Of a DNA stretch of 64,000 nucleotides, positions 27,669 to 40,465 are shown piece after piece. The stretch is from Escherichia phage SUT_E420, in sequence record OQ990039; one strand, given 5' to 3'. The position numbers and the translations under genes are program-made. The notes under the pieces are model-generated. The model worked only from the letters and a program-made list of their open reading frames with translations, made no database searches and was not told the origin of the DNA. How positions within the stretch are numbered: the first letter of the stretch is position 1; each line of letters starts with the position of its first letter.

Positions 27669-27744
27669 TGGTAGTTAGTAGTGGATTTGAACCACTGTAG
27701 TCGCTCCGTATGAAGGAGGTGCATAACCACTCTGCCAACTAACT
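27669..27744 (-). tRNA. tRNA, anticodon CAT (Met or Ile2)
   Basis: Acceptor AGTTAGT/ACTAACT, anticodon loop TTCATAC, T-arm AGTGG-TTCAAAT-CCACT, CCA encoded. Confidence 0.7.
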
Positions 27745-27911
27745 AGTTAATTCTTTATAGGTTAGATCTAGAAGATCTTTCTTACTGATAAGTCCTTCTC
27801 TATATTGGTCAATAAACATATCTATTCTAGAGTTCTCTGAGACTTCTATATCAGAAAGTTCAGCAAATATTTTTGCAAGTTTATCAATATCTTCCATACA
27901 TAACCTTAATT

Positions 27912-27988
27912 TGGTACTCCGGGAGGGATTTAAACCCCCGATCTCTCGGTTATCAGCCGAGTGCTTTAGATCGCTAAGCTACCGAAGC
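27912..27988 (-). tRNA. tRNA-Ile (anticodon GAT)
   Basis: Acceptor GCTTCGG/CCGGAGT, anticodon stem CTCGG/CCGAG with loop CTGATAA, CCA encoded. Confidence 0.7.
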
Positions 27989-27989
27989 A

Positions 27990-28217
27990 TTAACATTTTG
28001 CAGCAGAACGTTTGCCATTTCTAGGTGCACCTGGAAGTCGTGCACGTTCTGCCATTCTTCGCTTAATCTTTGAGATATTTTCTAGTGTTTGTTCTTCAGG
28101 CTTAATACCTGAAACACTACACCACTGATTACCATCCCATGCGGTAATGATCATAACACCATTACTCATGATCTTTTCTGTAAAAGTAATCCTCATTATA
28201 GCAACTCGTCTAAGCAA
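27990..28217 (-). CDS. hypothetical protein
   Basis: 75-aa ORF; probable start at internal Met. Confidence 0.35.
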   Translation of the reverse strand: MLRRVAIMRITFTEKIMSNGVMIITAWDGNQWCSVSGIKPEEQTLENISKIKRRMAERARLPGAPRNGKRSAAKC

Positions 28218-28489
28218 GAGGTATATTTAAGTTTACCATCTTTATCTACTTTGATTTCGACTTCCGCTCGTGGTACTTGACGAACTACACCATGAATCAT
28301 CTTATAGCGAATGCCTTTAGCTGGTTCATGCTCTTTTGGAAATACTTGCTTAACCGTTACTACCTTAAAACCCTCACGCGGTGTTAACACTACTACTTGA
28401 TCACCTTCTTTGATCTTCCAAGAGCCAGGAAATTCATAGGTATAGCGTTGACCACCAGTTTGGAACACAACAGAAAGATAACGTTTCAT
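28196..28489 (-). CDS. hypothetical protein
   Basis: 97-aa ORF downstream of promoter 28520-28548. Confidence 0.5.
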   Translation of the reverse strand: MKRYLSVVFQTGGQRYTYEFPGSWKIKEGDQVVVLTPREGFKVVTVKQVFPKEHEPAKGIRYKMIHGVVRQVPRAEVEIKVDKDGKLKYTSCLDELL

Positions 28490-28519
28490 TTGGCTTCCCT
28501 CTCATTAATTTATATAAAT

Positions 28520-28548
28520 ATTATAACAATAAATAAGAGAGAAAGCAA
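28520..28548 (-). promoter_or_regulatory. T5-early-type promoter (-35 TTGCTT, -10 TATAAT)
   Basis: 17-bp spacer, conserved leader. Confidence 0.6.
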
Positions 28549-28556
28549 ATGAATTT

Positions 28557-28724
28557 TTAATAAAGTTTAGTCACTTCATAAACTATACTACGAGATTCTT
28601 TATTACGTTCTATTAAATTAGAATATGCTTTTTCAGCTTCATTTTTAGTATTAAAGTCTATAACGTGGGAGGTATTCGCTCTATTTGATTGACTATACCA
28701 GATAACTACTAATAATTTAAACAT
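28557..28724 (-). CDS. hypothetical protein
   Basis: ORF 28557-28751 trimmed to internal Met because upstream part overlaps tRNA. Confidence 0.4.
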   Translation of the reverse strand: MFKLLVVIWYSQSNRANTSHVIDFNTKNEAEKAYSNLIERNKESRSIVYEVTKLY

Positions 28725-28738
28725 AATAGTCCTTAAGT

Positions 28739-28825
28739 TGGTGCTGGGCACAGGATTCGAACCTGTAACGGGATTACTCCTCCTGATTACAAATCAGGTG
28801 CATTCAACCATTCTGCCAACCCAGC
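28739..28825 (-). tRNA. tRNA, 84 nt with long variable arm, apparent anticodon TGT
   Basis: Perfect acceptor GCTGGGT/GCCCAGC, T-arm ACAGG-TTCGAAT-CCTGT, anticodon stem CCTGA/TCAGG with loop TTTGTAA; 15-nt variable region atypical for Thr. Confidence 0.55.
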
Positions 28826-28990
28826 AGAACCCGTTATTTCAACGGGATTTCTTTTTCAATAACAGGAGACTTATCAGTCATAACCGCCATTGCCATTTGT
28901 TGTAGAAATTCAAAGGTGAAGGCTACACGTTCTTCACCAATCTCTACTTCTACACGTTTCTTTTGTTTATCGATCTTGACTTTTAGGTTA

Positions 28991-29242
28991 TCAGCCATTA
29001 GAGAGTACAGTACTGGTAGTTGGCAATACTACAGATGAAGCAACAGTGTTTAAATGCTTTCTCCAGTCTAGGTTAAATTGTTTTCGAAACTCTTCATAAG
29101 GTTCTTCTGGATAAAAGCTAAAACCTCCTTTCTCATCATTCAGGATAACAGAGCCGTCAGTTTGTTCGTATGCTCGGTATGTTTCTCCAATAACAATAAC
29201 TCGTTTTTCGGTACTTTTATTACGAAACTCAAAAACGTGCAT
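28991..29242 (-). CDS. hypothetical protein
   Basis: 83-aa ORF. Confidence 0.45.
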   Translation of the reverse strand: MHVFEFRNKSTEKRVIVIGETYRAYEQTDGSVILNDEKGGFSFYPEEPYEEFRKQFNLDWRKHLNTVASSVVLPTTSTVLSNG

Positions 29243-29258
29243 AATGTTTCCTTAAAGT

Positions 29259-29334
29259 TGGAGCGGCTAGAGGGAATCGAACCCTACTCAGCGAGGCTTG
29301 GAAGGCCTGCGGCACAACCCGTGTGCTTAACCGC
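29259..29334 (-). tRNA. tRNA-Gly (anticodon TCC)
   Basis: Acceptor GCGGTTA/TAGCCGC, anticodon loop CTTCCAA, T-loop TTCGATT, CCA encoded. Confidence 0.7.
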
Positions 29335-29342
29335 TTATTGTT

Positions 29343-29418
29343 TGGCTGGAGAAGGAGGAATCGAACCTACCATTAACGGAGTCAAAGGCCGTTGTGCTAA
29401 CCGTTACACTACTCTCCA
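29343..29418 (-). tRNA. tRNA-Gln (anticodon TTG)
   Basis: Acceptor TGGAGAG/TTCTCCA, anticodon loop CTTTGAC, CCA encoded. Confidence 0.65.
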
Positions 29419-29424
29419 ATTATT

Positions 29425-29500
29425 TGGCTGGGATGCCACGGATCGAACGTGGAACCTTCGGAGTCAGAGGCCGACGATCTGCCAATTGATCTACATCCCA
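29425..29500 (-). tRNA. tRNA-Gln (anticodon CTG)
   Basis: Perfect acceptor TGGGATG/CATCCCA, anticodon loop CTCTGAC, T-arm CCACG-TTCGATC-CGTGG. Confidence 0.65.
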
Positions 29501-29512
29501 ATAATTTTTATT

Positions 29513-29707
29513 CTACGGAAAAATTGTTGTTGGCTCAGATTCTTCCAAACGTTTGCCTTCATGATCAACACGAATAACGCCGCATCCTTCGCAAATCACA
29601 ACTGCACCATAACCTTCTTTGACCTCAGCTTCTGTAATCAAACCAGAAAGATCACCAGTATCTTTACCCCACATATCAATGGAGCATTGTTTGCAGAAAT
29701 CAGCCAT
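29513..29707 (-). CDS. small zinc-ribbon-like protein
   Basis: 64 aa with CxxC (CKQC) and CEGC pairs; sits between tRNA genes. Confidence 0.5.
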   Translation of the reverse strand: MADFCKQCSIDMWGKDTGDLSGLITEAEVKEGYGAVVICEGCGVIRVDHEGKRLEESEPTTIFP

Positions 29708-29732
29708 ATTTTATTTCCTATTTAAGTTAATT

Positions 29733-29809
29733 TGGGGTGGCTAGTGGAATTCGAATCCACATAGGCCTGATTCACAATCAGGATCATTAACCAATTATGA
29801 TATAGCCAC
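29733..29809 (-). tRNA. tRNA-His (anticodon GTG)
   Basis: Perfect acceptor GTGGCTA/TAGCCAC, anticodon stem CCTGA/TCAGG with loop TTGTGAA, CCA encoded. Confidence 0.75.
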
Positions 29810-30175
29810 AATTGAAAACTCGCAGGGTTAGCGAAACCTTCCTCAATTAGCATGTTCTAGAATACTAATCAAGTTATCTCCTATTGCACGCAGCTCAAGA
29901 CGAGTACGAATTTTCAATTGTGGCGGCTCTCAGAAACTCTTCTACTCTAGTCTTAGCAGCTTACTCCCGAACGCATGTCGGGGAAGTCTTACTAAGCGCA
30001 TCAAATAGCACCGTTACACTTTGAGCCATTGGTGTATCAAGAAGCAGAAGGACTTGAACCTTCACGAGATAGACCATTTATCTCAGCCGCTTTATGAGGT
30101 ATGTTGCAGGGAGTGGATGTTCCCTATAAACCTTTTAGGCAGCCCCGTCTACCGATTCCGGCATACTTCAGGATT

Positions 30176-30270
30176 TGGAGGTAGGTAAGGGGATCGAACC
30201 CTTACACCGTATCACTACGATCAACCGATTTCAAGTCGGAGTCCAGCGCCAGCCATTGGATTGACCTACC
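30176..30270 (-). tRNA. tRNA-Ser (anticodon TGA), class II
   Basis: 92 nt; perfect acceptor GGTAGGT/ACCTACC, anticodon loop CTTGAAA, long variable arm, CCA encoded. Confidence 0.75.
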
Positions 30271-30282
30271 ATATAAATTGTT

Positions 30283-30373
30283 TGGCGGAAGAGGAGAGAT
30301 TTGAACTCTCAAGCCGTTTTACCAGTCAGCCACTTTCCAAGCGGTTTTCGTCGCCAATTCGATTTGCTCTTCC
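30283..30373 (-). tRNA. tRNA-Ser (anticodon GGA), class II
   Basis: 88 nt; perfect acceptor GGAAGAG/CTCTTCC, anticodon loop TTGGAAA, T-arm GAGAG-TTCAAAT-CTCTC. Confidence 0.7.
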
Positions 30374-30485
30374 AATAATAAGATGATGCCTCTATCACAC
30401 CAGGCAGTTACGCCTCGCTGGGATTCGAACCCATTAAAACAGCTCAACCGAGATAGTAGGTTTAATTTACTCTGACCATCAAATT

Positions 30486-30562
30486 TGGTGCGTGACAAGG
30501 GATTCGAACCCTCAAAACCCGACTTCTAAGGACGGTATGTATGCCAATTCCATCAATCACGC
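30486..30562 (-). tRNA. tRNA, anticodon TAG (Leu-type anticodon on a 74-nt class I body)
   Basis: Acceptor GCGTGAT/GTCACGC, T-arm GAGGG-TTCGAAT-CCCTT; anticodon stem has one mismatch, so identity is tentative. Confidence 0.5.
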
Positions 30563-30567
30563 ATGTT

Positions 30568-30646
30568 TGGTGGAGAATAACGGAATCGAACCGTTCTGAT
30601 GTCCTCGGTGCAAGCGAGGTGTCCACTCCATGCAGACCCATTCCCC
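30568..30646 (-). tRNA. tRNA-Ala (anticodon TGC)
   Basis: Acceptor GGGGAAT/ATTCTCC, anticodon stem CCTCG/CGAGG with loop CTTGCAC, CCA encoded. Confidence 0.75.
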
Positions 30647-30884
30647 AAATTCTTTAGTTTACTAAGGCTATTAGCTCGGCGTAACTACAGCACCTTCGCT
30701 TCAAGCGGAAGGAACCGCGTCATCTCGCAAACCCGATACACTATTCAGTTGCCGCTGAACCTAGTGGACTAATCTAGAACTTCTCCCGAATCGTAGGGAT
30801 CGTGCTTTTTGGCAGCCAGTCCTAGGTCGAGCTAATACCTTAGTGAACTATGATGAGGATTTCTCCTCATCAATTTATATAAAT

Positions 30885-30913
30885 ATTATAACAAGAAATT
30901 AAGCATTAAGCAA
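30885..30913 (-). promoter_or_regulatory. T5-early-type promoter (-35 TTGCTT, -10 TATAAT) reading into tRNA cluster
   Basis: 17-bp spacer; no protein gene immediately downstream, only leader and tRNAs. Confidence 0.55.
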
Positions 30914-30931
30914 CTGCGTTTTTCTTGAAAT

Positions 30932-31010
30932 TGGTAGATCGCCTGGGACTCGAACCCAGAACCTTCCGATTAAAAGTCGGATGCTACTAAACCTATTGAG
31001 CTAGCGATCT
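30932..31010 (-). tRNA. tRNA-Lys (anticodon TTT)
   Basis: Perfect acceptor AGATCGC/GCGATCT, anticodon stem TCCGA/TCGGA with loop CTTTTAA, T-arm CTGGG-TTCGAGT-CCCAG. Confidence 0.8.
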
Positions 31011-31199
31011 ATTAGTAACCATTATACACTTCCTTAATAGAGTGGACTTTTAAGTAAGGGTGATTAGTACTAAACTCTACCATTACTTCATCCCAATTTT
31101 TACCATAATGAGCGAGTAAGGATTTTGATGTATTCTTACCTAACCGTTTGTCACTTACTACTAATCGAAATACTTTCATTTCGAAATCCTCTATTAAAA

Positions 31200-31277
31200 T
31201 GGAAGCGGGTGCAGGAATCGAACCTACCTCTTTCTAGCTTATGAGACTAGCGATCTCTACCAGAGATCTAACCCGCA
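31200..31277 (-). tRNA. tRNA, anticodon CAT (Met or Ile2)
   Basis: Anticodon stem CTAGT/GCTAG with loop CTCATAA; position 1-72 unpaired, which may indicate an initiator-like tRNA. Confidence 0.6.
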
Positions 31278-31283
31278 ATTGTT

Positions 31284-31359
31284 TGGTCAGTGCGGCAGGA
31301 CTCGAACCTGCGACCCGAAGCATCCAAGGCTCCCACGCTACCAACTGCGCTACGCACTG
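31284..31359 (-). tRNA. tRNA-Pro (anticodon TGG)
   Basis: Perfect acceptor CAGTGCG/CGCACTG, anticodon loop CTTGGAT, T-arm GCAGG-TTCGAGT-CCTGC. Confidence 0.75.
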
Positions 31360-31368
31360 TTAATTCTT

Positions 31369-31566
31369 TTATTGTGGAGGAATATTAATAATTCGTCCGT
31401 CTACACAATAAACGGTACTAGGAATTGTACTATATATGTAGAAATTCTTTATATTACTCTCTCCGCCACAGAAATTTTTAGCAAATTCATACTCTTTATT
31501 AATGGTTGAGTCAAGTTTAAAACAACCAGTAAGTAGGAATACAGACAGCAGTAAAACTTTTTTCAT
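31369..31566 (-). CDS. small lipoprotein
   Basis: 65 aa; signal peptide MKKVLLLSVFLLTGC with lipobox LTGC. Confidence 0.55.
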   Translation of the reverse strand: MKKVLLLSVFLLTGCFKLDSTINKEYEFAKNFCGGESNIKNFYIYSTIPSTVYCVDGRIINIPPQ

Positions 31567-31598
31567 TTTGCTTTCCTTCTCAACACTTTATAAGGTAT

Positions 31599-31627
31599 AT
31601 TATACAGAGAATTAAGCATAATAGCAA
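31599..31627 (-). promoter_or_regulatory. T5-early-type promoter (-35 TTGCTA, -10 TATAAT)
   Basis: 17-bp spacer; drives lipoprotein gene and downstream tRNAs. Confidence 0.6.
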
Positions 31628-32019
31628 ATGAATTTTTAATAAATTTACTTATTGTGTAGGCCACCTGGAGGCTACCAACCCCACGGCTGACAAAGAAGTT
31701 TGCGAGACCTCTCTTAAGTGCCAGAATAGACCCGCCGATCTATCGGAACCTACATAATAAGTAAACTTTATAGTGTCATTCTAGACAGGACTCGAACCTG
31801 TTATCACTTGTGCGGACTTACGAGAACCATTCTTTCACTCGAATCGAACGAGCTTCTGCCCTCGCCAAGCTGGTTTCCCCATCAACCACGCTAGAATGTT
31901 TGATTGTTTTCAGTGCAAGAGTCCGAGTCTTGGACACGACCGCTTCGCAAGTACATAGGCAGCTTATCATGAGTCAGCACTTCCGAATTGCTAGCTCCGT
32001 GTTCTGCACTGAAATTTTA

Positions 32020-32367
32020 TTAGTTTAACCGTAAAGTATTATCTACTTCACCCTTAATTGTTCGGCATTCTTCTGGGATTGCTGGTGTAGCCTTATATTC
32101 CCACCATTCAGAACCGTCGTATTCACCACGTTCTAACCAAGTTCCATCAGTAAACCACACGTTACCATAAAGCAATTGCCCACCGAAACCAGAATCATAT
32201 TTAAAGTCTAGATTATTTAGAAAATCTTCAATATCTTTTTCTGTATAACCTACGGGTAACACCCAAACTTCTTTGTCCCCATAATAACCGAATTCTATCT
32301 TAATACACTTAACTTCAGAATTAATATTCTTTAAGGCAAGTAACAATTCTTCTTTAGCATTAATCAT
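32020..32367 (-). CDS. hypothetical protein
   Basis: 115-aa ORF. Confidence 0.5.
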   Translation of the reverse strand: MINAKEELLLALKNINSEVKCIKIEFGYYGDKEVWVLPVGYTEKDIEDFLNNLDFKYDSGFGGQLLYGNVWFTDGTWLERGEYDGSEWWEYKATPAIPEECRTIKGEVDNTLRLN

Positions 32368-32393
32368 AGCATATTTCTCGTACTAGTTTAATT

Positions 32394-32470
32394 TGGCGCG
32401 ACCGATGGGATTTGAACCCACATTCCCTCCCGTGACAGGGGAGTACCATTACCAAGCCAGCCCCGGTCGC
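32394..32470 (-). tRNA. tRNA-Asp (anticodon GTC)
   Basis: Perfect acceptor GCGACCG/CGGTCGC, anticodon stem CTCCC/GGGAG with loop CTGTCAC, CCA encoded. Confidence 0.8.
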
Positions 32471-32479
32471 ATAATTCAT

Positions 32480-32665
32480 TTACTCAGCTTTGAGTTTTTC
32501 AATAGCTGCATTAAGTTCTTTAAGAAACTTTTTTCGTACATTAAGACGGTTGAGACTTACTAGTATATCATGTTTAAGTTCTTCGATGTATTTCTTCTCA
32601 ACTTCAATATTGTTGATAGTGCTATCACGATGAACTTCTAGCTGTGCAATTACATTCTTGGACAT
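32480..32665 (-). CDS. hypothetical coiled-coil protein
   Basis: 61-aa ORF. Confidence 0.4.
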   Translation of the reverse strand: MSKNVIAQLEVHRDSTINNIEVEKKYIEELKHDILVSLNRLNVRKKFLKELNAAIEKLKAE

Positions 32666-32767
32666 GCTTGTTTCCTCAGTTATTAATGAAAATGGTATCT
32701 GTGACTGAATTCGATGTCAGCAATGATAGCTGGTTGGCTACCGGTTTACTTAACTCTACACAGAATT

Positions 32768-32850
32768 TGGCGGGCCGTGTAGGATTCGAACCTACGTTGT
32801 CTTTCGACATGGATTAACAGTCCACCGCCAAACCGCTTGGCTAACGACCC
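32768..32850 (-). tRNA. tRNA-Asn (anticodon GTT), 80 nt with 13-nt variable region
   Basis: Acceptor GGGTCGT/ACGGCCC, D-stem GCCA/TGGC, anticodon loop CTGTTAA, T-arm GTAGG-TTCGAAT-CCTAC. Confidence 0.65.
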
Positions 32851-33002
32851 TAAATTTATATTGCTGACTAGGATTTTCACCTAGACGGAGTTAGCACCGT
32901 AGCGTGTAGCGGCATACCTCTCCAAACCGTGCCTCATCTTTCAATTACGGAGACAGTGTTCCTACGCGTGCCTGAATTGATTTAACAACTCTTTCAGCAA
33001 AT

Positions 33003-33078
33003 TGGACGACCGCATGAGATTTGAACTCACATAAAAAGGATTTGCAATCCTTCGCCTAAGCCATTCAGCCAACGGTCG
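33003..33078 (-). tRNA. tRNA-Cys (anticodon GCA)
   Basis: Acceptor CGACCGT/GCGGTCG, anticodon stem AAGGA/TCCTT with loop TTGCAAA, CCA encoded. Confidence 0.75.
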
Positions 33079-33126
33079 ATTTATCTTGTTCTGTCATGTT
33101 GCTTCTCCAGTTCAATTTATGTAATT

Positions 33127-33155
33127 ATTATACAGAACTTTTGGAAACTAAGCAA
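33127..33155 (-). promoter_or_regulatory. T5-early-type promoter (-35 TTGCTT, -10 TATAAT)
   Basis: 17-bp spacer; immediately upstream of tRNA-Cys. Confidence 0.6.
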
Positions 33156-33420
33156 CTACATTTTTTAAAAATTTGATGCCTTTCTTTTTCTTCTTATATT
33201 TCCACGTTAAGGGATTCTGTCGATTATGAACGCTTGAGATCTTTGTCTCGTCAAAGTTCTTCAATATCATGTAATCACAGGATAATTGTTCTAATGGAAT
33301 GTGATCACCGTCAAAAGCGTATACATAAGGCTGTTGACTAGCACGATAATGATAGACTTTGTTAATTCTACGTTTCAGCAACTTATCCGCGCAGTAAATA
33401 AAGAAGTTTTCAGGATGCAT
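33148..33420 (-). CDS. hypothetical protein
   Basis: ORF 33148-33435 trimmed to ATG at 33420 with GAGGGAG ribosome-binding site; C-terminus overlaps promoter. Confidence 0.45.
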   Translation of the reverse strand: MHPENFFIYCADKLLKRRINKVYHYRASQQPYVYAFDGDHIPLEQLSCDYMILKNFDETKISSVHNRQNPLTWKYKKKKKGIKFLKNVVA

Positions 33421-33437
33421 CAGCAGCTCCCTCAATT

Positions 33438-33512
33438 TGGTGCACCCTGTTCGTATCGAACGAACCTCTCAAGCTCTTCAGGCAAGCGCTAATCCATCTC
33501 AGCTAAAGGTGC
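33438..33512 (-). tRNA. tRNA, probable Phe (anticodon GAA)
   Basis: Acceptor GCACCTT/AGGGTGC, T-arm GTTCG-TTCGATA-CGAAC; anticodon loop CTGAAGA if stem tolerates two mismatches. Confidence 0.5.
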
Positions 33513-33518
33513 AAATTT

Positions 33519-33595
33519 TGGCAAACCTACTAGGACTCGAACCTAGACCGTACGGTTTTGGAGACCGACATGCTGTCCAGTAACACTCTAGGAAT
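33519..33595 (-). tRNA. tRNA-Trp (anticodon CCA)
   Basis: Anticodon stem CGGT/ACCG with loop CTCCAAA; perfect T-arm CTAGG-TTCGAGT-CCTAG; acceptor has two U-U mismatches. Confidence 0.55.
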
Positions 33596-33603
33596 GCAGG
33601 AAT

Positions 33604-33680
33604 TGGCGTCCTGTGCGGGGATCGAACCCGCAAATCCTACCTTGAAAGGGTAGTGACTTTACCAGTTTGTCTAACAGGAC
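33604..33680 (-). tRNA. tRNA-Glu (anticodon TTC)
   Basis: Perfect acceptor GTCCTGT/ACAGGAC, anticodon stem CTACC/GGTAG with loop CTTTCAA, T-arm GCGGG-TTCGATC-CCCGC. Confidence 0.8.
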
Positions 33681-33687
33681 TTAAATT

Positions 33688-33778
33688 TGGTGTTGGATGA
33701 TGGAGTCGAACCACCCGAGACCCTTCCGAGTCGGCAGATTTACAGTCTGCTTCGCTACCTCTACGATACTAATCCAAC
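33688..33778 (-). tRNA. tRNA-Tyr (anticodon GTA), class II
   Basis: 88 nt; perfect acceptor GTTGGAT/ATCCAAC, anticodon stem GCAGA/TCTGC with loop CTGTAAA, long variable arm. Confidence 0.8.
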
Positions 33779-33842
33779 ATATTTAAAAGTATTCAAATAC
33801 TAGTTTAAACACTTTTAGATATGTTTCCAAATTAGATAACTA

Positions 33843-33870
33843 TTATATCAAGTTTTATGGCACTGAGCAA
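33843..33870 (-). promoter_or_regulatory. candidate promoter (-35 TTGCTC, 16 bp, -10 TATAAT) upstream of tRNA-Tyr
   Basis: Overlaps hairpin CACTGAGCAAG/CTTGCTCAGTG that follows the upstream gene. Confidence 0.45.
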
Positions 33871-33906
33871 GTCAAATTTTAAAGAACTTGCTCAGTGCTG
33901 TATTAG

Positions 33907-34182
33907 TTAGTCGAACTTAGGAGCGACAGTTAAGGAGAATGGAAGTTCGAAAACTTCTTCGCCCTCATCACTAACAGTAATTACACGACCTTTAAGTTCA
34001 GACATTGAAATATCAATATCAGCTTTTGCATCTGGAGCCATGCCAGCTTCAATACATTTAGCTTTAACTTCCGGCAGAAGTTCTACATCGTAGAAATAAA
34101 GCCATTCAATCTCACCTTCCCAGCCTTCCCAGGATTTACAGATTGCACTTTCAATACCAGTTGCTATAACACGATTTTGCAT
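33907..34182 (-). CDS. hypothetical protein
   Basis: 91-aa ORF. Confidence 0.5.
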   Translation of the reverse strand: MQNRVIATGIESAICKSWEGWEGEIEWLYFYDVELLPEVKAKCIEAGMAPDAKADIDISMSELKGRVITVSDEGEEVFELPFSLTVAPKFD

Positions 34183-34212
34183 TCGTTAACTCCTTCATCA
34201 ATTTATATAACT

Positions 34213-34242
34213 ATTATACCAGAAATTTAAAGCAAAAGGCAA
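34213..34242 (-). promoter_or_regulatory. T5-early-type promoter (-35 TTGCCT, 18 bp, -10 TATAAT)
   Basis: Conserved leader TCATCAATTTATATAA on plus strand. Confidence 0.5.
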
Positions 34243-34272
34243 GTACATTTTTAAAAATTCTGTTTGGAGGAG

Positions 34273-34479
34273 CTAAACTCCAGATTCTTCAGCTAAGTCT
34301 AGGCTAATAAGAGATATAGCCATAATTGCTGCTCCGTGTTCTCTTTCTCCTGTCTCTTTAGCTAGGGTTATAATATCAAGAAATTGCTTATGAAAGTCTG
34401 CAACCTCTTGAGTCATACCTGCCTCAGCAATCATGCCTTTAAGCATGAAACGTTGTGCGGTAATTTCGGGATTAGCCAT
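34273..34479 (-). CDS. hypothetical protein
   Basis: 68-aa ORF. Confidence 0.45.
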   Translation of the reverse strand: MANPEITAQRFMLKGMIAEAGMTQEVADFHKQFLDIITLAKETGEREHGAAIMAISLISLDLAEESGV

Positions 34480-34654
34480 GTTGTTTCTCCAGTTTCATGT
34501 TTAATAGTCTACAAATAAAATCAATGTCTTCATCTGTGCCTAGATCTCTATCTTCAAGAGTTGCCTTGAAGTTTTTCGTCAATTCCATGAGGATAACTTC
34601 TCTAGAACGACGTGTTGGCGGAGGTGGATGTCTATACATCTTATTTCCTTAAGT

Positions 34655-34731
34655 TGGTAGGGGTGGTGGGATTCGAACCCACAAAACCTGAATTTTAAGT
34701 CCAGTACCTATACCAATTCGATTACACCCCC
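34655..34731 (-). tRNA. tRNA, anticodon TAA (Leu-type anticodon on a 74-nt class I body)
   Basis: Acceptor GGGGGTG/CACCCCT, anticodon stem CTGGA/TTCAG with loop CTTAAAA, T-arm GTGGG-TTCGAAT-CCCAC. Confidence 0.55.
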
Positions 34732-34832
34732 ATGTAATCAGTTTATTAGTTGATACATATTATAGCCTAGTGAAAATCCTACTACTAGTCCCACAAACCA
34801 ACCAATATAATAATCTTTTAGTTTCACAGGTA

Positions 34833-35018
34833 TTATCCTCGTTCAATATCTAGGGAAACACCGCAGTTAGGATTAATACCTGTACCGTTGCAATTTGAAC
34901 AAATCCAGATATTGCAAAAAGTATCTCCTGCTTCTGCATCAGAACTTTCACCAATTCCCCTACACTCAGGGCAGGCACATTCTTCTAGCTCTTGCTTGAG
35001 TTCTTGAAACTTGGACAT
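34833..35018 (-). CDS. Cys-rich small protein (zinc-binding-like)
   Basis: 61 aa; CACPECRG and CSNCNG motifs. Confidence 0.5.
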   Translation of the reverse strand: MSKFQELKQELEECACPECRGIGESSDAEAGDTFCNIWICSNCNGTGINPNCGVSLDIERG

Positions 35019-35027
35019 ATAGTCTCC

Positions 35028-35216
35028 TTAGTCAATTACTTTTGAGGCTTCAAGGGAGTCGATATAGTATACGTTTTCTACCATAATCATATAATCTGCC
35101 ACTTTATCCATAGCTTGGGCCTCAGAGGTAGCTCTGGCTAACCTATATCCTTTTTTATATTCATCCGGGTATTCTCTATCTTGAATAAATACAACATAAA
35201 CTATGTATAATTCCAC
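35028..35216 (-). CDS. hypothetical protein
   Basis: ORF 35028-35363 trimmed: N-terminal part overlaps two tRNA genes; GTG start after AGGGG ribosome-binding site. Confidence 0.4.
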   Translation of the reverse strand: MELYIVYVVFIQDREYPDEYKKGYRLARATSEAQAMDKVADYMIMVENVYYIDSLEASKVID

Positions 35217-35236
35217 TTGTAATCCCCTAATTAAGT

Positions 35237-35314
35237 TGGTGGCTCCCCGAGGATTCGAACCTACGTACCTTCCGGTTATGAGCCGGGTGCTCATACCATA
35301 TGAGCTTGAGAACC
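35237..35314 (-). tRNA. tRNA, anticodon CAT (Met or Ile2)
   Basis: Acceptor GGTTCTC/GGGAGCC with G-U pairs, D-stem GCTC/GAGC, anticodon loop CTCATAA. Confidence 0.55.
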
Positions 35315-35320
35315 AGAATT

Positions 35321-35409
35321 TGGCGGAAGAAGTGGGAATCGAACCCACAAGGCTATATTTCAAACCGACAGATTAGCAATCTGCTGCAATACCGTTATGC
35401 TATTCTTCC
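35321..35409 (-). tRNA. tRNA-Ser (anticodon GCT), class II
   Basis: 86 nt; perfect acceptor GGAAGAA/TTCTTCC, anticodon stem GCAGA/TCTGT with loop TTGCTAA, T-arm GTGGG-TTCGATT-CCCAC. Confidence 0.75.
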
Positions 35410-35430
35410 GAATTTATAAGATATATTATA

Positions 35431-35949
35431 TTAGAAATTTAGCTTCATAGCAAGAAAATTTTTCAAGTTTTCGGTAGACATCTCATCCACATCTACGGGA
35501 GAAACAAAGCCGTTTAATTTTCTAGCAAATTTTTCACCCGCAGGATCGTTGTCTCCGACAGCTACCAATTTAAAAGGTAATAATTTCAGTTGCTTTAATA
35601 ACGCTTTTCCTGGAGAAGAACCTAACATTGCCAGGGCTGGATAACCAGCGTTATGTAGCGCAACTGCCTTAAATACAGATTCAGCGATCAATACTACTTT
35701 TTCATCTCCATTGAGAGTTTCTAGTCCCCATACACACTGGGTAGTAGAATAAGTAAAATATTTAGCTTCAAAGGGACACTTACCATGACCTTTTGGAGCA
35801 GAAGGATTATACGTCTGATAGCCTCGCAACATCCCGGAGAAGTCATACAACGGGACTGTTAGCCATCCTTCCGGACTTAACCAGCAATGATATTTATCTG
35901 TATCAAATCCTCTGGATAAGAGGTGCTGTGTTAGCTCATCAACATTCAT
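35431..35949 (-). CDS. Toprim-domain protein
   Basis: ORF 35431-36000 trimmed to MNVDEL start with GAGAGG ribosome-binding site; VVLIAESVFKAVAL and GDNDPAG resemble the Toprim E and DxD motifs. Confidence 0.55.
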   Translation of the reverse strand: MNVDELTQHLLSRGFDTDKYHCWLSPEGWLTVPLYDFSGMLRGYQTYNPSAPKGHGKCPFEAKYFTYSTTQCVWGLETLNGDEKVVLIAESVFKAVALHNAGYPALAMLGSSPGKALLKQLKLLPFKLVAVGDNDPAGEKFARKLNGFVSPVDVDEMSTENLKNFLAMKLNF

Positions 35950-35979
35950 ATTTGGTTCCTCTCTCAAATTTATAGATAT

Positions 35980-36008
35980 ATTATACAGAGAATTTAGCAT
36001 TCAAGCAA
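35980..36008 (-). promoter_or_regulatory. T5-early-type promoter (-35 TTGCTT, -10 TATAAT)
   Basis: 17-bp spacer, conserved leader. Confidence 0.6.
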
Positions 36009-36124
36009 TCAAATTTTTTAACTTTTTAGAGGAAAATCATAGGGCACTTAAGGGTAGCAGATAAGTGGGGAGGACCAAAATTTGTGACCCCACTAAAAAT
36101 CCGGGGGCAATTTTTAAAGACCCC

Positions 36125-36153
36125 TTGACATTTTCGCTGGGGTAGTGTAAAGT
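36125..36153 (+). promoter_or_regulatory. sigma70-type promoter (-35 TTGACA, 17 bp, -10 TAAAGT)
   Basis: Consensus -35, starts the only plus-strand operon inside the minus-strand block. Confidence 0.55.
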
Positions 36154-36215
36154 ATATGTTATGGATGAGTGATCAAAGAGACACACATTTTCTATATACT
36201 AGGAGGTGTCAAAAT

Positions 36216-37205
36216 ATGACAGAAGAAGTAGCTAAGAGTCCTGAGACCGTCGCTAGCGTTGCAGCAGAACTGCACCGTCACGAGGAATCAGATAAGAAAA
36301 AGTGGGAGAAGGTCAGAGCCTACGAAGAAAAACATCGTGAACACGATGATGAAGAAGAAGATGACGATGATGAACATTGTCATAAATATGGAAAACATAA
36401 AATGCAAGAACCAGTAAACGTATTCACTAGTGGCTTCCCTGGCCTACTGGGTGGTTACCCAGCAAACGCAGGTGCTTTCGGTGGTGAAGGTATGGGACTA
36501 TTCGGAGCTATCCTAATCGGTGCTCTATTAACCGGCGGATTCGGTGGTTTCGGTGGATTCGGTGGACGTGGTGTAGTTGGTGAAGGTACCGCAGTTGATG
36601 CAGTACTTCAGAACCAAGATACCGCTAGTATTCTAGCAGCTATCAACACTACTCGTACAGAGGCTAACCAGGGTACTGGAGCTGTTTTAAGCGCAGTTAA
36701 CAATGGTTTTAGCCAGACAACCCAAAACCAGAGCCGTGATACTCAGTCTGTACTAACTACGATCTACGGTACAGGTGCTAATCTGTCTAATCAGATCTGC
36801 CAGGAAACTCGCAACGTTATTCAGGGTCAGTTCGATCTTTCTCGCCAGATTGATCAATCTTTCGCAGCTAACCAGATAGCTCGTGCACAAGATAAGTTTG
36901 ATTCTGCACAGATCGCTTTCCAGCAGACTTTACAAACTAATAACCAGTTTGCCGCTGTTCAGGCTCAGATGTGTGCTAACCAGAACTCTCTGGAACGTCA
37001 GATCGCTGAATGTTGCTGTGAACTTCAGACTGCGATCGCTGGTGTAACTACTGCGCGTATCCAGGATGAGTTAGACGCATGTCGCCTACGTGAAGCAATC
37101 GCTGCGGGTAGCGGTGCTAACGGTCAGGTAATTAATCAAATCGCTTTAAGTCTTGGTGCTATCACTCAGACTCTGGCTGGTCTGCAGGCTAAACTGCCGG
37201 CTTAA
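36216..37205 (+). CDS. glycine-zipper membrane protein with acidic N-terminus and Q/N/T-rich C-terminal half
   Basis: ORF 36156-37205 trimmed to MTEEVAK start after AGGAGG; DDEEEDDDDEH run, GxxxG-rich hydrophobic GMGLFGAILIGALLTGGFGGFGGFGG, low-complexity tail, C-terminal CCC. Confidence 0.55.
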   Translation: MTEEVAKSPETVASVAAELHRHEESDKKKWEKVRAYEEKHREHDDEEEDDDDEHCHKYGKHKMQEPVNVFTSGFPGLLGGYPANAGAFGGEGMGLFGAILIGALLTGGFGGFGGFGGRGVVGEGTAVDAVLQNQDTASILAAINTTRTEANQGTGAVLSAVNNGFSQTTQNQSRDTQSVLTTIYGTGANLSNQICQETRNVIQGQFDLSRQIDQSFAANQIARAQDKFDSAQIAFQQTLQTNNQFAAVQAQMCANQNSLERQIAECCCELQTAIAGVTTARIQDELDACRLREAIAAGSGANGQVINQIALSLGAITQTLAGLQAKLPA

Positions 37206-37226
37206 TATTAAGGGGAGGAGCCCATT

Positions 37227-37643
37227 ATGAGTAAATATGGTTTTGTAAATAACGGACTTAATCAAAGTATGGGCTCCCAGCAGCCCATTCCGGGTCTGGA
37301 TAACCCCTACTTACAACAGTTGCAACAGCGTTTAGCAGAAGCGCAACAGATGCAGCAACAACTCCAGCAAAACCCTGGAAGTGTGAGTCCTATGCAAATG
37401 ATGCAGCAAATGAGCGGGCAGTCGCAAATGCCTCAACAAATGCAGCAACAGGTGCCTCAGCAGCAAGTTCAGCAACAAACCCAACAACCGCAGGTTTCTG
37501 CGGAAGGACAGGCAGTACTAGCCCTTTTCGAAGACTTCGCAAAGACAGAGGATGGGAAACAGCTTGTATCACTTATGGGTAAGTTTAATAGCTTCTGCCA
37601 AAGCCAAGTTGCAAAAGCTCAAAATGGGGGTAGTAACTCCTAA
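37227..37643 (+). CDS. glutamine-rich low-complexity protein
   Basis: 138 aa, about one third Gln (QQLQQ, QQMQQQ repeats); GGAGG ribosome-binding site. Confidence 0.5.
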   Translation: MSKYGFVNNGLNQSMGSQQPIPGLDNPYLQQLQQRLAEAQQMQQQLQQNPGSVSPMQMMQQMSGQSQMPQQMQQQVPQQQVQQQTQQPQVSAEGQAVLALFEDFAKTEDGKQLVSLMGKFNSFCQSQVAKAQNGGSNS

Positions 37644-37652
37644 GGAGGAAAT

Positions 37653-37847
37653 ATGTGTTGCAGAAAATCTGTTTCGTGCTGCCCAGTGCCTGTAGCACGT
37701 TGTTGCTCTCCAGCAATGTTTACGCAAATACCGGCGTTCAATCCCTTTGCCTTTAAGCCTACTCTTATCCTGCCCCCTAGAGTAGATTTTCAGTCAAGAT
37801 TGGCCTCCCGTATGGGTGGTTGCTGTACACCGAGAGTATGGTTCTAA
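37653..37847 (+). CDS. Cys-rich small protein
   Basis: 64 aa with MCC, SCC, RCC and GGCC Cys pairs; AGGAGG ribosome-binding site. Confidence 0.45.
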   Translation: MCCRKSVSCCPVPVARCCSPAMFTQIPAFNPFAFKPTLILPPRVDFQSRLASRMGGCCTPRVWF

Positions 37848-37859
37848 ACCAAAAACAAA

Positions 37860-37894
37860 AGCCCCTGCCGAAAGGTAAGGGGCTTTTTCTTTTG
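37860..37894 (+). terminator. rho-independent terminator of plus-strand cassette
   Basis: Stem AGCCCCT/AGGGGCT followed by TTTTTCTTTTG; second copy after the N-gap is an artefact. Confidence 0.8.
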
Positions 37895-38071
37895 CCTTAA
37901 ATACAGAAAANNNNNNNNNNNNNNNNNNNNNNNNNNNNNNNNNNNNNNNNNNNNNNNNNNNNNNNNNNNNNNNNNNNNNNNNNNNNNNNNNNNNNNNNNN
38001 NNNNNNNNNNGAGTATGGTTCTAAACCAAAAACAAAAGCCCCTGCCGAAAGGTAAGGGGCTTTTTCTTTTG

Positions 38072-38115
38072 CCTTAAATACAGAAAAGCCCGCGCTCTCG
38101 TAGGAAACGCGGGCT
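38072..38115 (-). terminator. rho-independent terminator after SPFH gene
   Basis: Stem AGCCCGCG/CGCGGGCT, then TTTTCTGTATTT on the minus strand; convergent with the plus-strand terminator. Confidence 0.7.
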
Positions 38116-38139
38116 TGGTTCGAAGATTACGTGTAACTA

Positions 38140-39087
38140 TTACTTGTTACGCATATCCATGATCATTTGACCATCGTAGCCAGTACCTACCACAGTCTGA
38201 GGTACACCACCTTGATACTTCTGAGCACGGATCATTTCAACTTCCAGTTGTTTCCAACGAATCATTTCAGGAGTAATGGTACGTTGCAATGCGGCGTTAG
38301 CTTCAGCTTCTTTCTTAGCTGCGTACAGTTTAGCATCTGCGTCACGTTCATTAGCAATAGCTTGGTTGTTACGAGCTTCACGATCTGCTTCTGCTTGTTT
38401 AACTTTTTGCTGTGCTTCCTGTTCAACGCGAGCAAGTTCAGCTTTCGCAGCATTAACTTGCTCTTCACGAACTTTGGTATTCTGTACCTGTTCCATGATT
38501 ACTGGCGGCAAGGTAATATCCTGAAGGAATACCTGCTTAACTGTGTAACCATATGGGCGCGCATACTCTTCAACTTCCTGTTGAATTGCAGTTTGCAATT
38601 GAGCCTGAATTTTAGCATCAAATAAATCTTGTGCTTTAGGTACAGACTTACCAAACTCACGAATAGTAGACAGTAATTTTTCAGTTACATACTTGTCTAG
38701 TGCCTGATCCTGAGTACCTGCGTTAATACGGTTAATCGGTGCTTTAGAACCATCAAACTGCAACATAACAGTCAGGTCAACAGTGGATTTAAACTTATCC
38801 TGGCTAGGAACCTGAAGTTTATCTAATTTTACAGCAATATCTTTTGTACTAAAAGTATCGAAAGATGCAAACGGGTTTACAAGATGGAAGCCCGGCAATA
38901 CTGGATTAGGGTCTACTTTACCCAGGAATGTTTGGGTTTTAACCGTACCATCAGAAACAATAGTATATGAATTAAAAGCTAGGATTAAACCTGCTAAACC
39001 AACTACAGCACCAATACCCCAACGTTTAATAGTACGAATTACTTTCTGCTCAGAAGTCAGTTCTTTCATATTTTTAGTAGCAAACAT
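38140..39087 (-). CDS. SPFH/band-7 (stomatin/prohibitin/HflK-C-like) membrane protein
   Basis: 315 aa; N-terminal TM WGIGAVVGLAGLILAF, band-7-like core, long Ala/Gln/Glu-rich coiled coil. Confidence 0.65.
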   Translation of the reverse strand: MFATKNMKELTSEQKVIRTIKRWGIGAVVGLAGLILAFNSYTIVSDGTVKTQTFLGKVDPNPVLPGFHLVNPFASFDTFSTKDIAVKLDKLQVPSQDKFKSTVDLTVMLQFDGSKAPINRINAGTQDQALDKYVTEKLLSTIREFGKSVPKAQDLFDAKIQAQLQTAIQQEVEEYARPYGYTVKQVFLQDITLPPVIMEQVQNTKVREEQVNAAKAELARVEQEAQQKVKQAEADREARNNQAIANERDADAKLYAAKKEAEANAALQRTITPEMIRWKQLEVEMIRAQKYQGGVPQTVVGTGYDGQMIMDMRNK

Positions 39088-39121
39088 ATATTTCCTTTGT
39101 TTTAGTTACAGTTAATAAAAT

Positions 39122-39196
39122 TGGCCGAGGTGACAGGATTCGAACCTGCATAAAGGAATTTAGAAGACTCCTGCCTCTCCCTTAGACTACACCCCG
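39122..39196 (-). tRNA. tRNA-Arg (anticodon TCT)
   Basis: Acceptor CGGGGTG/CACCTCG, anticodon stem GGAGT/ATTCC with loop CTTCTAA, T-arm GCAGG-TTCGAAT-CCTGT, CCA encoded. Confidence 0.7.
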
Positions 39197-39993
39197 TTTA
39201 AGTATTTTTAAGAACTCTCGTAAAAACTCTTAAAAATACAGACGATACCGGGAGAGTCATAAGTCTCACTCATTAAGTATTTCAAGACAAAATACAGTAA
39301 CGTCTATTATTTTCCAGTTTAAGTCAGGGTGACTTAGTGGTTATGTCCTGCGGTATATTGAGGACTCGGTTAGGCTTGGGGTCATGACTTCCCACCTTTT
39401 GCTGCTACTCAACAGGAGTTATCGCGAATTACCTGTGCTATTGTGCACCATTAGTGACATCTCTCATGTCAGCATTTCCCACTTTGTGGATAGCTTGAAA
39501 AACTACTCCGATATGGAGAAAGAACTTCACTATCCTAGAATACCTTCTAAAGTTCTTCTTTAGCCTGGACATAGTTAAATCGTAATAAAACTATTCAGCA
39601 GACTGGTTGGTTAGTCTGGAACCAACTACCGCGTGGTTTAGGCAGTGCGCAACTAACCTCGGAAGCTTTTATGTTAAAAGCATCAGTTATCCAGTTCTTA
39701 CCGACCGTAGGATTCGAACCTACATCTTCCACCAGTTACGGCTTGATAATACCAATTATACTAGGACGGCAGTGTTACTACATAAGTGATTTCCACACCC
39801 CACTATTTATAAATCAGAGAAGAGTTTAGGGGAGAGGTTTCAGACGCCTCATTTTACACGTTCTAGCCACTAACCGGGATTGCCGCCCCCTGTGTACTAG
39901 TTTTACAACTAACCCACCGACTCTATTCAATGCGCTCCGGTTGGGATTCTGCACTCAGCGTAATCGGCTCGCTGTTCCCTAATTTATGAATAT

Positions 39994-40030: not shown

Positions 40031-40465
40031 TTAGAAAAATTCACTAGCAATCAAAGCAGTTGTTTTACCGTCATAACGTCCGGGAAATTCTGCCTTAATA
40101 GTTTTCATTAATAGAGCTTTGGTAATACCTGGGTTTAATTTAACCAGTTCTGCAAAATACTCACGAATCTGAACCTCAGTCAGTTGACTTGGCTGATACT
40201 CTTGCAGCATGGAATAAAGCAGTTGCTCATAGTCTACATCAGTAGGAACTTCCATACCAACTTTAATAGCGCGTTGTTTTGCATTTTCTAGAGCCTTAAT
40301 CTGAGCTTTCAGATAGGCTACGAACTCGGTTCGAGTAACAATGTCTTTATCAATACGTTGCAGATCACCAATCATGGTCTGAAGATTAAGTGCCCGTTCC
40401 TTATCACCGTGAGTACGTGCTAGACTAAGTAGTCCACGAAGGGTCATTAGAATATTTTCACCCAT
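40031..40465 (-). CDS. hypothetical protein
   Basis: 144-aa ORF; start overlaps stop of a small upstream ORF (TAATG). Confidence 0.5.
   Translation of the reverse strand: MGENILMTLRGLLSLARTHGDKERALNLQTMIGDLQRIDKDIVTRTEFVAYLKAQIKALENAKQRAIKVGMEVPTDVDYEQLLYSMLQEYQPSQLTEVQIREYFAELVKLNPGITKALLMKTIKAEFPGRYDGKTTALIASEFF

Follow-up and report, generated by a model that had tools for sequence, protein, structure and literature searches.

Threonine and asparagine tRNAs with variable hairpins and leucine tRNAs without a long arm in the tRNA region of a T5-like Escherichia phage

A 64,000-nucleotide (nt) stretch of DNA from Escherichia phage SUT_E420 (sequence record OQ990039), referred to here as the window, contains a long tRNA-rich region in which several genes have an unusual shape. 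In a nucleotide search, the 8-kb core of the window was 100% identical to Escherichia phage SUT_E1520, and the 8-kb tRNA cluster was matched by 659 phage records, nearly all of them T5-like Demerecviridae. By sequence, the window is assigned to a T5-like phage (Tequintavirus). The textbook rule, also stated in an identity review, allows a long variable arm only in tRNAs for Leu, Ser, and bacterial Tyr, plus Sec (PMC9976931). Four tRNA genes of the window depart from the textbook shapes. The features concerned are as follows.

27669 to 39770, minus strand: tRNA-rich region, 25 tRNA-like genes with small open reading frames (ORFs) between them, all on the minus strand (ARAGORN, Rfam, relatives)
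28557 to 28724, minus strand: 55-amino-acid (aa) ORF, function not assigned (phrog_15108), inside the cassette that replaces the short Thr gene of T5
28739 to 28825, minus strand: tRNA-Thr(UGU) with class II shape (ARAGORN, Rfam, RNAfold, family covariation)
30486 to 30562, minus strand: tRNA-Leu(UAG) without a long arm (ARAGORN, Rfam, family covariation)
32768 to 32850, minus strand: tRNA-Asn(GUU) with a variable hairpin (ARAGORN, Rfam, RNAfold, homologues)
34655 to 34731, minus strand: tRNA-Leu(UAA) without a long arm, a paralogue of Leu(UAG) (ARAGORN, Rfam, family covariation)

The 25 tRNA-like genes comprise 21 genes called by ARAGORN (minus strand, 27669 to 39196), two found by Rfam only (35240-35314 and 39699-39770), and two below the Rfam threshold that were recovered in a permissive Rfam run. 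The gathering score of the Rfam tRNA model is 29 bits. All called tRNA genes encode CCA.

The tRNA-Thr(UGU) gene is 87 nt long with its encoded CCA and 84 nt without it. Its variable region of 15 nt (A, GGA-GUAA-UCC, and CGUU) forms a 3-bp stem closed by a GUAA tetraloop, and its D arm combines a 3-bp stem with an 11-nt loop of the Ser/Tyr type, instead of the 4- to 5-nt variable loop and 4-bp D stem of a class I tRNA. Rfam scored the gene at 60.3 bits, and the minimum free energy structure given by RNAfold was a cloverleaf with the extra hairpin (z-score of −2.25). Long-arm Thr(UGU) was found in 107 phage records, Aeromonas Straboviridae among them, and 20 diverse viral contigs, the largest of 342 kb, were hits for it in a pattern scan of IMG/VR. 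In an alignment of 18 distinct sequences, 97.8% of the cells were paired and compensatory changes were observed at 18 of 23 pairs, a level reached by none of 500 shuffled controls. All three pairs of the arm covary (GGA/UCC, GAC/GUC, GGC/GCC, GGG/CCC, UGA/UCA, and AUC/GAU), and the usual cap is a GNRA tetraloop. A pattern scan of bacterial genomes yielded class-II-shaped Thr(UGU) on chromosomal contigs of up to 2.9 Mb in metagenome-assembled genomes of Eremiobacterota (Vulcanimicrobiota). These genes are 82 to 87 nt long, with GNRA-capped arms, an acceptor start of GCCGACG, and both G1-C72 and C2-G71 (for example, locus L062, 6861-6944). The long-arm Thr shape is therefore not confined to phages.

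In Escherichia coli, Thr identity is determined by G1-C72, C2-G71, G35, and U36 (PMC9976931). The window gene has both acceptor pairs and the anticodon positions G35 and U36, together with the discriminator A73, and the two pairs are invariant in 18 of 18 long-arm Thr sequences, as is C11-G24. Bacterial tRNA-Ser conserves G2-C71 and requires G73 as well as a long variable arm in the correct orientation (PMC9976931). The long-arm Thr instead has C2-G71, A73 or, in relatives, U73, and a short arm of 3 bp, which does not correspond to a substrate of seryl-tRNA synthetase (SerRS); its G18G19 register is of the Ser/Tyr type, not the Leu type. It is thus probably charged by threonyl-tRNA synthetase through G1-C72, C2-G71, G35, and U36. 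The anticodon-stem motif U36-A-A-U-C-A41 is retained.

The tRNA-Asn(GUU) gene (83 nt with CCA, 80 nt without) has a normal 4-bp D stem and a noncanonical variable region of 13 nt, which consists of the hairpin GUC-GAAA-GAC followed by AAC. It scored 59.0 bits with Rfam, and its minimum free energy structure was again a cloverleaf with a hairpin (z-score of −2.31). The requirements for Asn identity, anticodon GUU and discriminator G73 (PMC9976931), are both present, and charging by asparaginyl-tRNA synthetase through these elements is probable. The host-like sequence U36-A-A-U-C-C41 is retained. At least 80% of the gene is covered in 534 phage records, and long-arm Asn occurs in T5-like Epseptimavirus and Novosibvirus, in Klebsiella T4-like Jiaodavirus, and in Aeromonas-type phages. 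Its hairpins covary among homologues (GUC/GAC, GUUC/GAAC, UCA/UGA, AUCC/GGAU, and GAG/CUC). Apart from Leu, Ser, and Tyr, it was mainly Thr and Asn tRNAs that had long variable regions in the loci fetched.

The two Leu genes show the converse change. Leu(UAG) and Leu(UAA) are each 77 nt long with CCA (74 nt without), combine a D stem of 3 bp with a variable loop of 5 nt (GUUUU), and scored 47.5 and 59.9 bits, respectively, with Rfam; neither has a long variable arm of more than 10 nt or a class II shape. Leu(UAG) additionally has G13.A22 and a U30.U40 mismatch. Both D loops read G13 A14 A15 U16 U17 G18 G19 Y20 A20a, the variable loop ends with U48, and the discriminator is A73. E. coli leucyl-tRNA synthetase (LeuRS) requires A73, A15-U48, G18G19, and A20a, reads neither the anticodon nor the long arm, and remains active on armless constructs (PMC9976931). 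Host LeuRS probably charges both armless tRNAs by recognizing A73 and the D/T-loop core, and their codons would be CUA and UUA. Armless Leu was found in at least six phage lineages and in hundreds of phages; for Leu(UAG), 363 phage records cover at least 80% of the gene. In Felixounavirus pinkbiff (a FelixO1-like Escherichia phage; locus L111, 8997-9074, 9575-9652, and 10506-10584), all three Leu genes (UAG, CAA, and UAA) are armless. The structure was judged by covariation rather than by thermodynamic folding: in an alignment of 13 diverged sequences, 96.9% of the cells were paired, 18 of 20 pairs showed compensatory changes, and A73, A15, and G18G19 were invariant in all 13. The identity review states that tRNA-Leu has a long arm everywhere except in animal mitochondria (PMC9976931), and the phage family is an exception to this statement. 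Over its 5′ 38 nt, the window Leu(UAG) shows homology to the 5′ half of the 85-nt class II Leu1(UAG) of T5, which marks the armless form as an allele of a genuine tRNA-Leu.

The original prediction, made from the letters of the window, had described the 84-nt Thr tRNA with anticodon TGT and a 15-nt variable arm, the two 74-nt class I-shaped Leu tRNAs, and the 80-nt Asn tRNA with a 13-nt variable region. ARAGORN returned the Thr and Leu genes at the same coordinates, with 5-nt variable loops for the latter, and ARAGORN and Rfam both recovered the Asn gene. The long arms on class I isoacceptors persisted in the software calls. The suspicion that some of the oddities were errors of hand parsing was ruled out, since the coordinates are identical and the oddities are conserved.

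Comparison with T5 showed that the same slots are occupied there by a 75-nt Thr(UGU), an 85-nt class II Leu(UAG), and a 78-nt Asn, all normally shaped, and that T5 has no Leu(UAA). At the Thr gene, homology is broken over positions 28561-28826 of the window, comprising the tRNA and the 55-aa ORF, versus positions 28664-28744 of T5. The phrog_15108 ORF also follows the long-arm Thr gene in phages MM-1 and Bas33 and is missing from the T5 slot. Leu(UAA) and two small ORFs occupy the position of the HNH endonuclease gene hegA in T5. We surveyed about 26 T5-like loci from IMG/VR and GenBank. The armless Leu(UAA) was present in 19 of them; Leu(UAG) was armless in 15 and long armed in 9, Asn was long armed in 15 and short in 9, and Thr was long armed in 5 and short in 16. 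The shape alleles assort independently across these loci. As judged from these comparisons, the odd-shaped tRNAs are alternative alleles in a mosaic, cassette-swapping tRNA region common to T5-like phages. A host origin of the Leu(UAA) and Thr genes was considered and rejected: blastn searches against 5,426 complete E. coli genomes returned either a 23-nt T-arm match on plasmids or no match, and at this level of comparison the two genes are not recent copies of host tRNAs.

The original prediction took the unusual members together as a sign of decoding specialization and proposed a comparison with codon usage. Codon usage of 58 window ORFs was compared with that of a sample of E. coli genes. 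CUA accounts for 20% of the Leu codons of the phage (0 to 3% in the E. coli sample), UUA for 26% (4 to 11%), and ACA for 22% of its Thr codons (7 to 12%), and the codons of the two armless Leu tRNAs together make up 46% of the phage Leu codons. The odd tRNAs thus supply codons that the AT-rich phage overuses, and decoding specialization holds in this weak sense only. Altered decoding was not found. Among 5,310 codons aligned with T5 in 40 orthologous ORFs, CUA differed at 17 positions, 14 of which have other Leu codons in T5, and UUA differed at 27 positions, with Leu codons at 21. ACA differed at 19 positions; Thr codons stood opposite it at 12 and Ser codons at none. The proposed check of identity elements found the Leu, Thr, and Asn sets intact. 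Identity elements and substitution patterns together speak against recoding and indicate that tRNA shape is remodeled while amino acid identity is kept; the anticodons are not misassigned. A better reading than decoding specialization is that the shapes are remodeled, with identity preserved, in a recombining and probably antidefense tRNA region.

The tRNA region of T5 has been shown by experiment to counter retron, Septu, PrrC, and PARIS systems. The AriB nuclease of PARIS cuts host Lys(UUU), its main target, as well as Thr(UGU) and, at lower efficiency, Asn(GUU) between positions 40 and 41 of the motif U36-A-A-U-C-A/C; variants of all three encoded by T5 rescue both cells and phages from PARIS (PMC12409363). 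Retron-Eco7/Septu PtuAB cuts the variable arm of host tRNA-Tyr, and T5 tRNA-Tyr reportedly owes its resistance to a distinctive variable loop (PMC13096335). Long-arm tRNAs are preferred by the toxins AbiEii and MenT3. The window encodes isoacceptors of the defense-nuclease targets Lys(UUU), Thr(UGU), Asn(GUU), and Tyr(GUA), and its two noncanonical long arms, on Thr and Asn, lie on two of the three published AriB targets. In both, UAAUC(A/C) at positions 36 to 41 is unchanged and the adjacent variable region and D loop differ from those of the host. Among enteric phages, every short allele of Thr(UGU) (four lineages) and Asn (two lineages) is altered in UAAUC at position 39 or 40, whereas every long-arm Thr or Asn allele keeps the host-like motif. 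Such an either/or pattern, motif changed or arm added, is expected if the two are alternative escape routes.

Based on these observations, we propose that the genes are functional phage tRNAs of standard identity whose variable region has been remodeled, and that the selective reason is escape from tRNA-attacking immune effectors; on balance, we favor this explanation. Positioned beside the anticodon stem, a short GNRA-capped hairpin could shield Thr(UGU) and Asn(GUU) from nucleases such as PARIS AriB while both otherwise keep the host cleavage motif. Loss of the long arm could hide tRNA-Leu from arm-directed toxins, and the odd tRNAs would at the same time supply codons that are overused by the phage. 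A published AlphaFold 3 model has the AriB dimer reaching from positions 40/41 in the anticodon stem to positions 16/17 in the D loop. Between them lies the point at which the variable arm leaves the tRNA body, and we infer that the arm may clash sterically with AriB. The fuller version, in which the variable region is a battleground between phage and immunity, the Thr, Asn, and Leu families are all adaptive shape changes, the hairpin blocks AriB-type nucleases, and arm loss evades toxins of the PtuAB, MenT, and AbiEii types, is put forward tentatively, as possible rather than probable.

Results published for individual phages bear on this proposal. Bas33 (HildyBeyeler) has a long-arm Thr that is 98.9% identical to that of the window and a long-arm Asn, and it lacks Lys(UUU). 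In the PARIS study, T5 tRNA-Lys alone rescued Bas33, whereas T7, which has no tRNAs, needed Lys and Thr (PMC12409363). The rescue of Bas33 by Lys alone lends indirect support to nuclease-resistant Thr and Asn shapes. For Bas34, its own Asn and Lys were insufficient against PARIS, and all three T5 tRNAs were needed (PMC12409363). In this phage (SelmaRatti; locus L116, 14598-14681 and 16522-16612), the "Asn" gene is a deletion hybrid of a 5′ long-arm Asn and the 3′ end of fMet, fused at the T arm common to both genes, and its acceptor stem is broken; the His gene of the phage is a His/Gly hybrid. The broken Asn probably explains the insufficiency, and Bas34 was set aside as an uninformative counterexample.

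Several points weigh against escape as the reason. Long-arm Thr and long-arm Asn each contribute essentially a single lineage to the either/or pattern, and long-arm Thr outside enteric phages has mixed sequences at 39 to 41. A phage defense rationale is not obvious for the chromosomal long-arm Thr of Eremiobacterota. Lys(UUU), the main AriB target, had no long arm in the loci examined, and we know of no nuclease that targets the arm of tRNA-Leu. The minimum free energy structures of the window Leu tRNAs are not cloverleaves (z-scores of −1.4 and −0.6). The authors of the PARIS study did not credit the arm for the Bas33 result, and the word "variable" is absent from their main text (PMC12409363). 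A serious rival is therefore neutral or near-neutral drift, in which synthetases ignore the variable region and the alleles persist for codon supply only, with no link to defense. LeuRS does ignore the arm (PMC9976931), the mismatch with host usage of CUA, UUA, and ACA is strong, and both the Eremiobacterota genes, which indicate that the shape is simply compatible with translation, and the armless Lys(UUU) fit it. Drift does not account for hairpins, mostly GNRA capped, that are kept by compensatory changes in unrelated phage families, and this upkeep argues for selection on the arm itself. Nor does it account for both noncanonical long arms falling on published AriB targets, or for alternative alleles being kept together in a region with demonstrated antidefense activity. 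We consider drift somewhat doubtful, although it deserves to be taken seriously.

The remaining explanations are less convincing. Arm changes might serve biogenesis or stability, by stabilizing a weak core with a 3-bp D stem, directing polycistronic processing, or recruiting or avoiding a modification enzyme. Class II cores typically have a 3-bp D stem like that of the long-arm Thr, GNRA tetraloops are stabilizing motifs, and all of the genes lie in densely packed transcripts with encoded CCA; however, the long-arm Asn has a normal 4-bp D stem, the normally shaped T5 alleles work in the same genomic context, and Pfam and PHROG scans found no arm-using tRNA-modifying enzyme nearby, which makes this explanation improbable. 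It is very improbable that the tRNAs recode or mistranslate, with the long-arm "Thr" charged by SerRS or LeuRS, the armless "Leu" by another synthetase, and ACA, CUA, or UUA ambiguous. Class II tRNAs with foreign anticodons have precedents in nematode nev-tRNAs and bacterial allo-tRNAs. The Ser/Tyr-type D arm of the long-arm Thr, its invariant C11-G24, and A73 in the window copy would fit such a role, as would the fact that SerRS and LeuRS ignore the anticodon (PMC9976931). Against this stand C2-G71 in place of the Ser-conserved G2-C71, the short arm, the non-Leu register of G18G19, and the invariant Thr acceptor pairs. ACA was never aligned with Ser codons, and CUA and UUA were aligned mostly with Leu codons; the same codons occur in orthologues of T5, whose tRNAs are normally shaped, and host tRNAs read them as Leu or Thr in the same cell. 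Finally, the odd genes could be decaying pseudogenes or artifacts of gene prediction. A related record flags the neighboring Gly, His, Ser, Ala, and Tyr genes as pseudogenes, Bas34 carries broken hybrids derived from deletion, and the Leu tRNAs fold poorly in silico. This possibility is scarcely credible for genes that score 47 to 60 bits with Rfam, have hundreds of conserved copies, covary in all stems, and, for the Leu species, read 46% of the phage Leu codons.

The rest of the cluster includes the following genes.

27669 to 27744, minus strand: elongator tRNA-Met(CAU), 100% identical to T5 tRNAM(CAU)
30568 to 30646, minus strand: tRNA-Ala(UGC), an allele other than that of T5, with G3.U70 kept, G8 in place of U8, a D arm with a 3-bp stem and an 11-nt loop, and a variable loop of 7 nt
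30932 to 31010, minus strand: tRNA-Lys(UUU), an allele other than that of T5, with U39 C40 G41 and a long D loop
31200 to 31277, minus strand: initiator tRNA-fMet(CAU), same sequence as T5 tRNAfM, position 1-72 mismatched (U1.U72)
33438 to 33595, minus strand: tRNA-Phe and tRNA-Trp with U.U mismatches (ARAGORN structures)
33688 to 33778, minus strand: tRNA-Tyr(GUA), 91 nt, with a 5-bp variable arm and GGAA cap (the T5 allele has 88 nt)
35237 to 35314, minus strand: tRNA-Ile2(CAU, presumed lysidine), a homologue of T5 tRNAI2(CAU) (Rfam 35240-35314, 40.3 bits)

The presence of three CAT-anticodon tRNAs, one of them with an unpaired 1-72 position, had been correctly predicted. They match the ordinary bacterial trio of Met, fMet, and Ile2 and are so named in the T5 record, and they give no indication of altered decoding. 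An unpaired 1-72 position is a normal hallmark of initiators. The anticodon stem of fMet (C-G, U-A, A-U, G-C, and U.G) does not have the three consecutive G-C pairs of an initiator; the T5 record still names it as one. Ile2(CAU) escapes ARAGORN because a bulged U interrupts its T stem. The U-U and C-U stem mismatches noted in the original prediction are indeed recurrent, being seen in Phe, Trp, both Gln tRNAs, and Leu(UAG). Phe has two U.U mismatches in the anticodon stem (28-42 and 29-41), shared by T5 Phe; Trp has two in the acceptor stem (2-71 and 3-70) and one in the anticodon stem; and both Gln tRNAs have C.U at 31-39. The mismatches of Phe and Trp are conserved alleles, not errors, and the anticodon-stem location of mismatches, close to the cut sites of AriB-type nucleases, may be relevant. 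Rfam did not pick up the Ala(UGC) gene even at E ≤ 1, and the MM-1 record lists it as a pseudogene; the allele of T5 is normal and 75 nt long.

Three further tRNA-like genes, all on the minus strand, are less regular. The gene at 39699-39770, found by Rfam only (35.5 bits), has no encoded CCA and an irregular anticodon arm. ARAGORN calls its T5 homologue "Ser(act)" inside the stable "RNAX" region, and a related record lists it as tRNA-OTHER. A Gly(UCC)-like gene at 29262-29335, with C27.C43 and T-stem mismatches, and a 95-nt Ser(UGA)-like gene at 30180-30270, with an aberrant D arm, were below the Rfam threshold and missed by ARAGORN. Both are pseudogenes in the MM-1 record; in the T5 record, the Gly and Ser1 homologues function as suppressors.

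Pfam and PHROG scans of the neighboring ORFs detected no synthetase, modification enzyme, or HNH endonuclease inside the cluster of this phage; these ORFs therefore offer no explanation of the odd tRNA shapes. A 189-aa ORF with a Toprim domain (35431-36000, minus strand), annotated as a DNA primase fragment and homologous to T5.076, directly adjoins the tRNA cluster; AriB is likewise a Toprim nuclease. A 144-aa ORF at 40031-40465 (minus strand) is labeled "tRNA amidotransferase" (phrog_1460), and its YqeY-like Pfam match is below threshold (18 bits versus a cutoff of 27).

Parts of these findings have known counterparts. The window covers the same genomic region as the T5 tRNA region, with the same isoacceptors, in a close relative, and the same principle would apply, namely, that the copy encoded by the phage departs from the host tRNA where the nuclease acts; for tRNA-Tyr, the published determinant is the variable loop. 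The T5 Thr and Asn tRNAs differ in having a normal shape and substitutions at 39 to 41, whereas the window alleles keep UAAUC and add a hairpin. The armless Leu has no published nuclease counterpart. Animal mitochondrial tRNA-Leu also has a class I shape and is leucylated via A73 and A14 (PMC9976931); the phage Leu is nonorganellar, keeps the G18G19/T-loop elbow and A15-U48, and is a predicted substrate of a bacterial LeuRS. Engineered minimal E. coli tRNA-Leu is likewise armless and is charged by LeuRS if A73 and the D/T tertiary core are intact (PMC9976931), but these are laboratory constructs, whereas the phage form is a natural, conserved gene family. With bacterial tRNA-Tyr and tRNA-Ser, the long-arm Thr shares the 3-bp D stem, the 11-nt D loop, and C11-G24, and the arm layout of E. 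coli tRNA-Tyr (1 nt, 3-bp stem, loop, and 3 to 4 nt) resembles its own. Its acceptor pairs and anticodon are nevertheless those of Thr, and it has neither G2-C71/G73 (Ser) nor U35 (Tyr). Allo-tRNAs and nev-tRNAs also combine a long variable arm with the anticodon of a class I family; allo-tRNAs have an 8/4 or 9/3 acceptor/T geometry, nev-tRNAs have Leu identity, and both recode. The window Thr and Asn have a 7/5 geometry, keep the Thr and Asn identity sets, and show no signal of recoding.

Hundreds of GenBank records already annotate these genes, and phage tRNAs are established as a counterdefense. Apparently new and previously undescribed are class-II-shaped Thr(UGU), long-arm Asn, and natural armless Leu as widespread families. 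Full-text searches, including reviews of noncanonical tRNAs and of tRNA-based evasion by phages and not covering the T5/BF23 tRNA sequence papers of the 1980s, turned up no account of long arms on phage Thr or Asn tRNAs or of phage Leu tRNAs that lack one.

These phage families break the long-arm rules while apparently keeping their identity and can be regarded as natural experiments on the tolerance of synthetases, EF-Tu, and the ribosome. A nuclease-resistant or orthogonal tRNA chassis may be built on the long-arm Thr and Asn and armless Leu scaffolds. If the arm changes do protect, they would represent a second escape route, one of shape rather than sequence. This would predict PARIS-resistant phages, which is relevant to the choice of therapeutic phages, and would explain the alternative tRNA alleles kept by T5-like phages.

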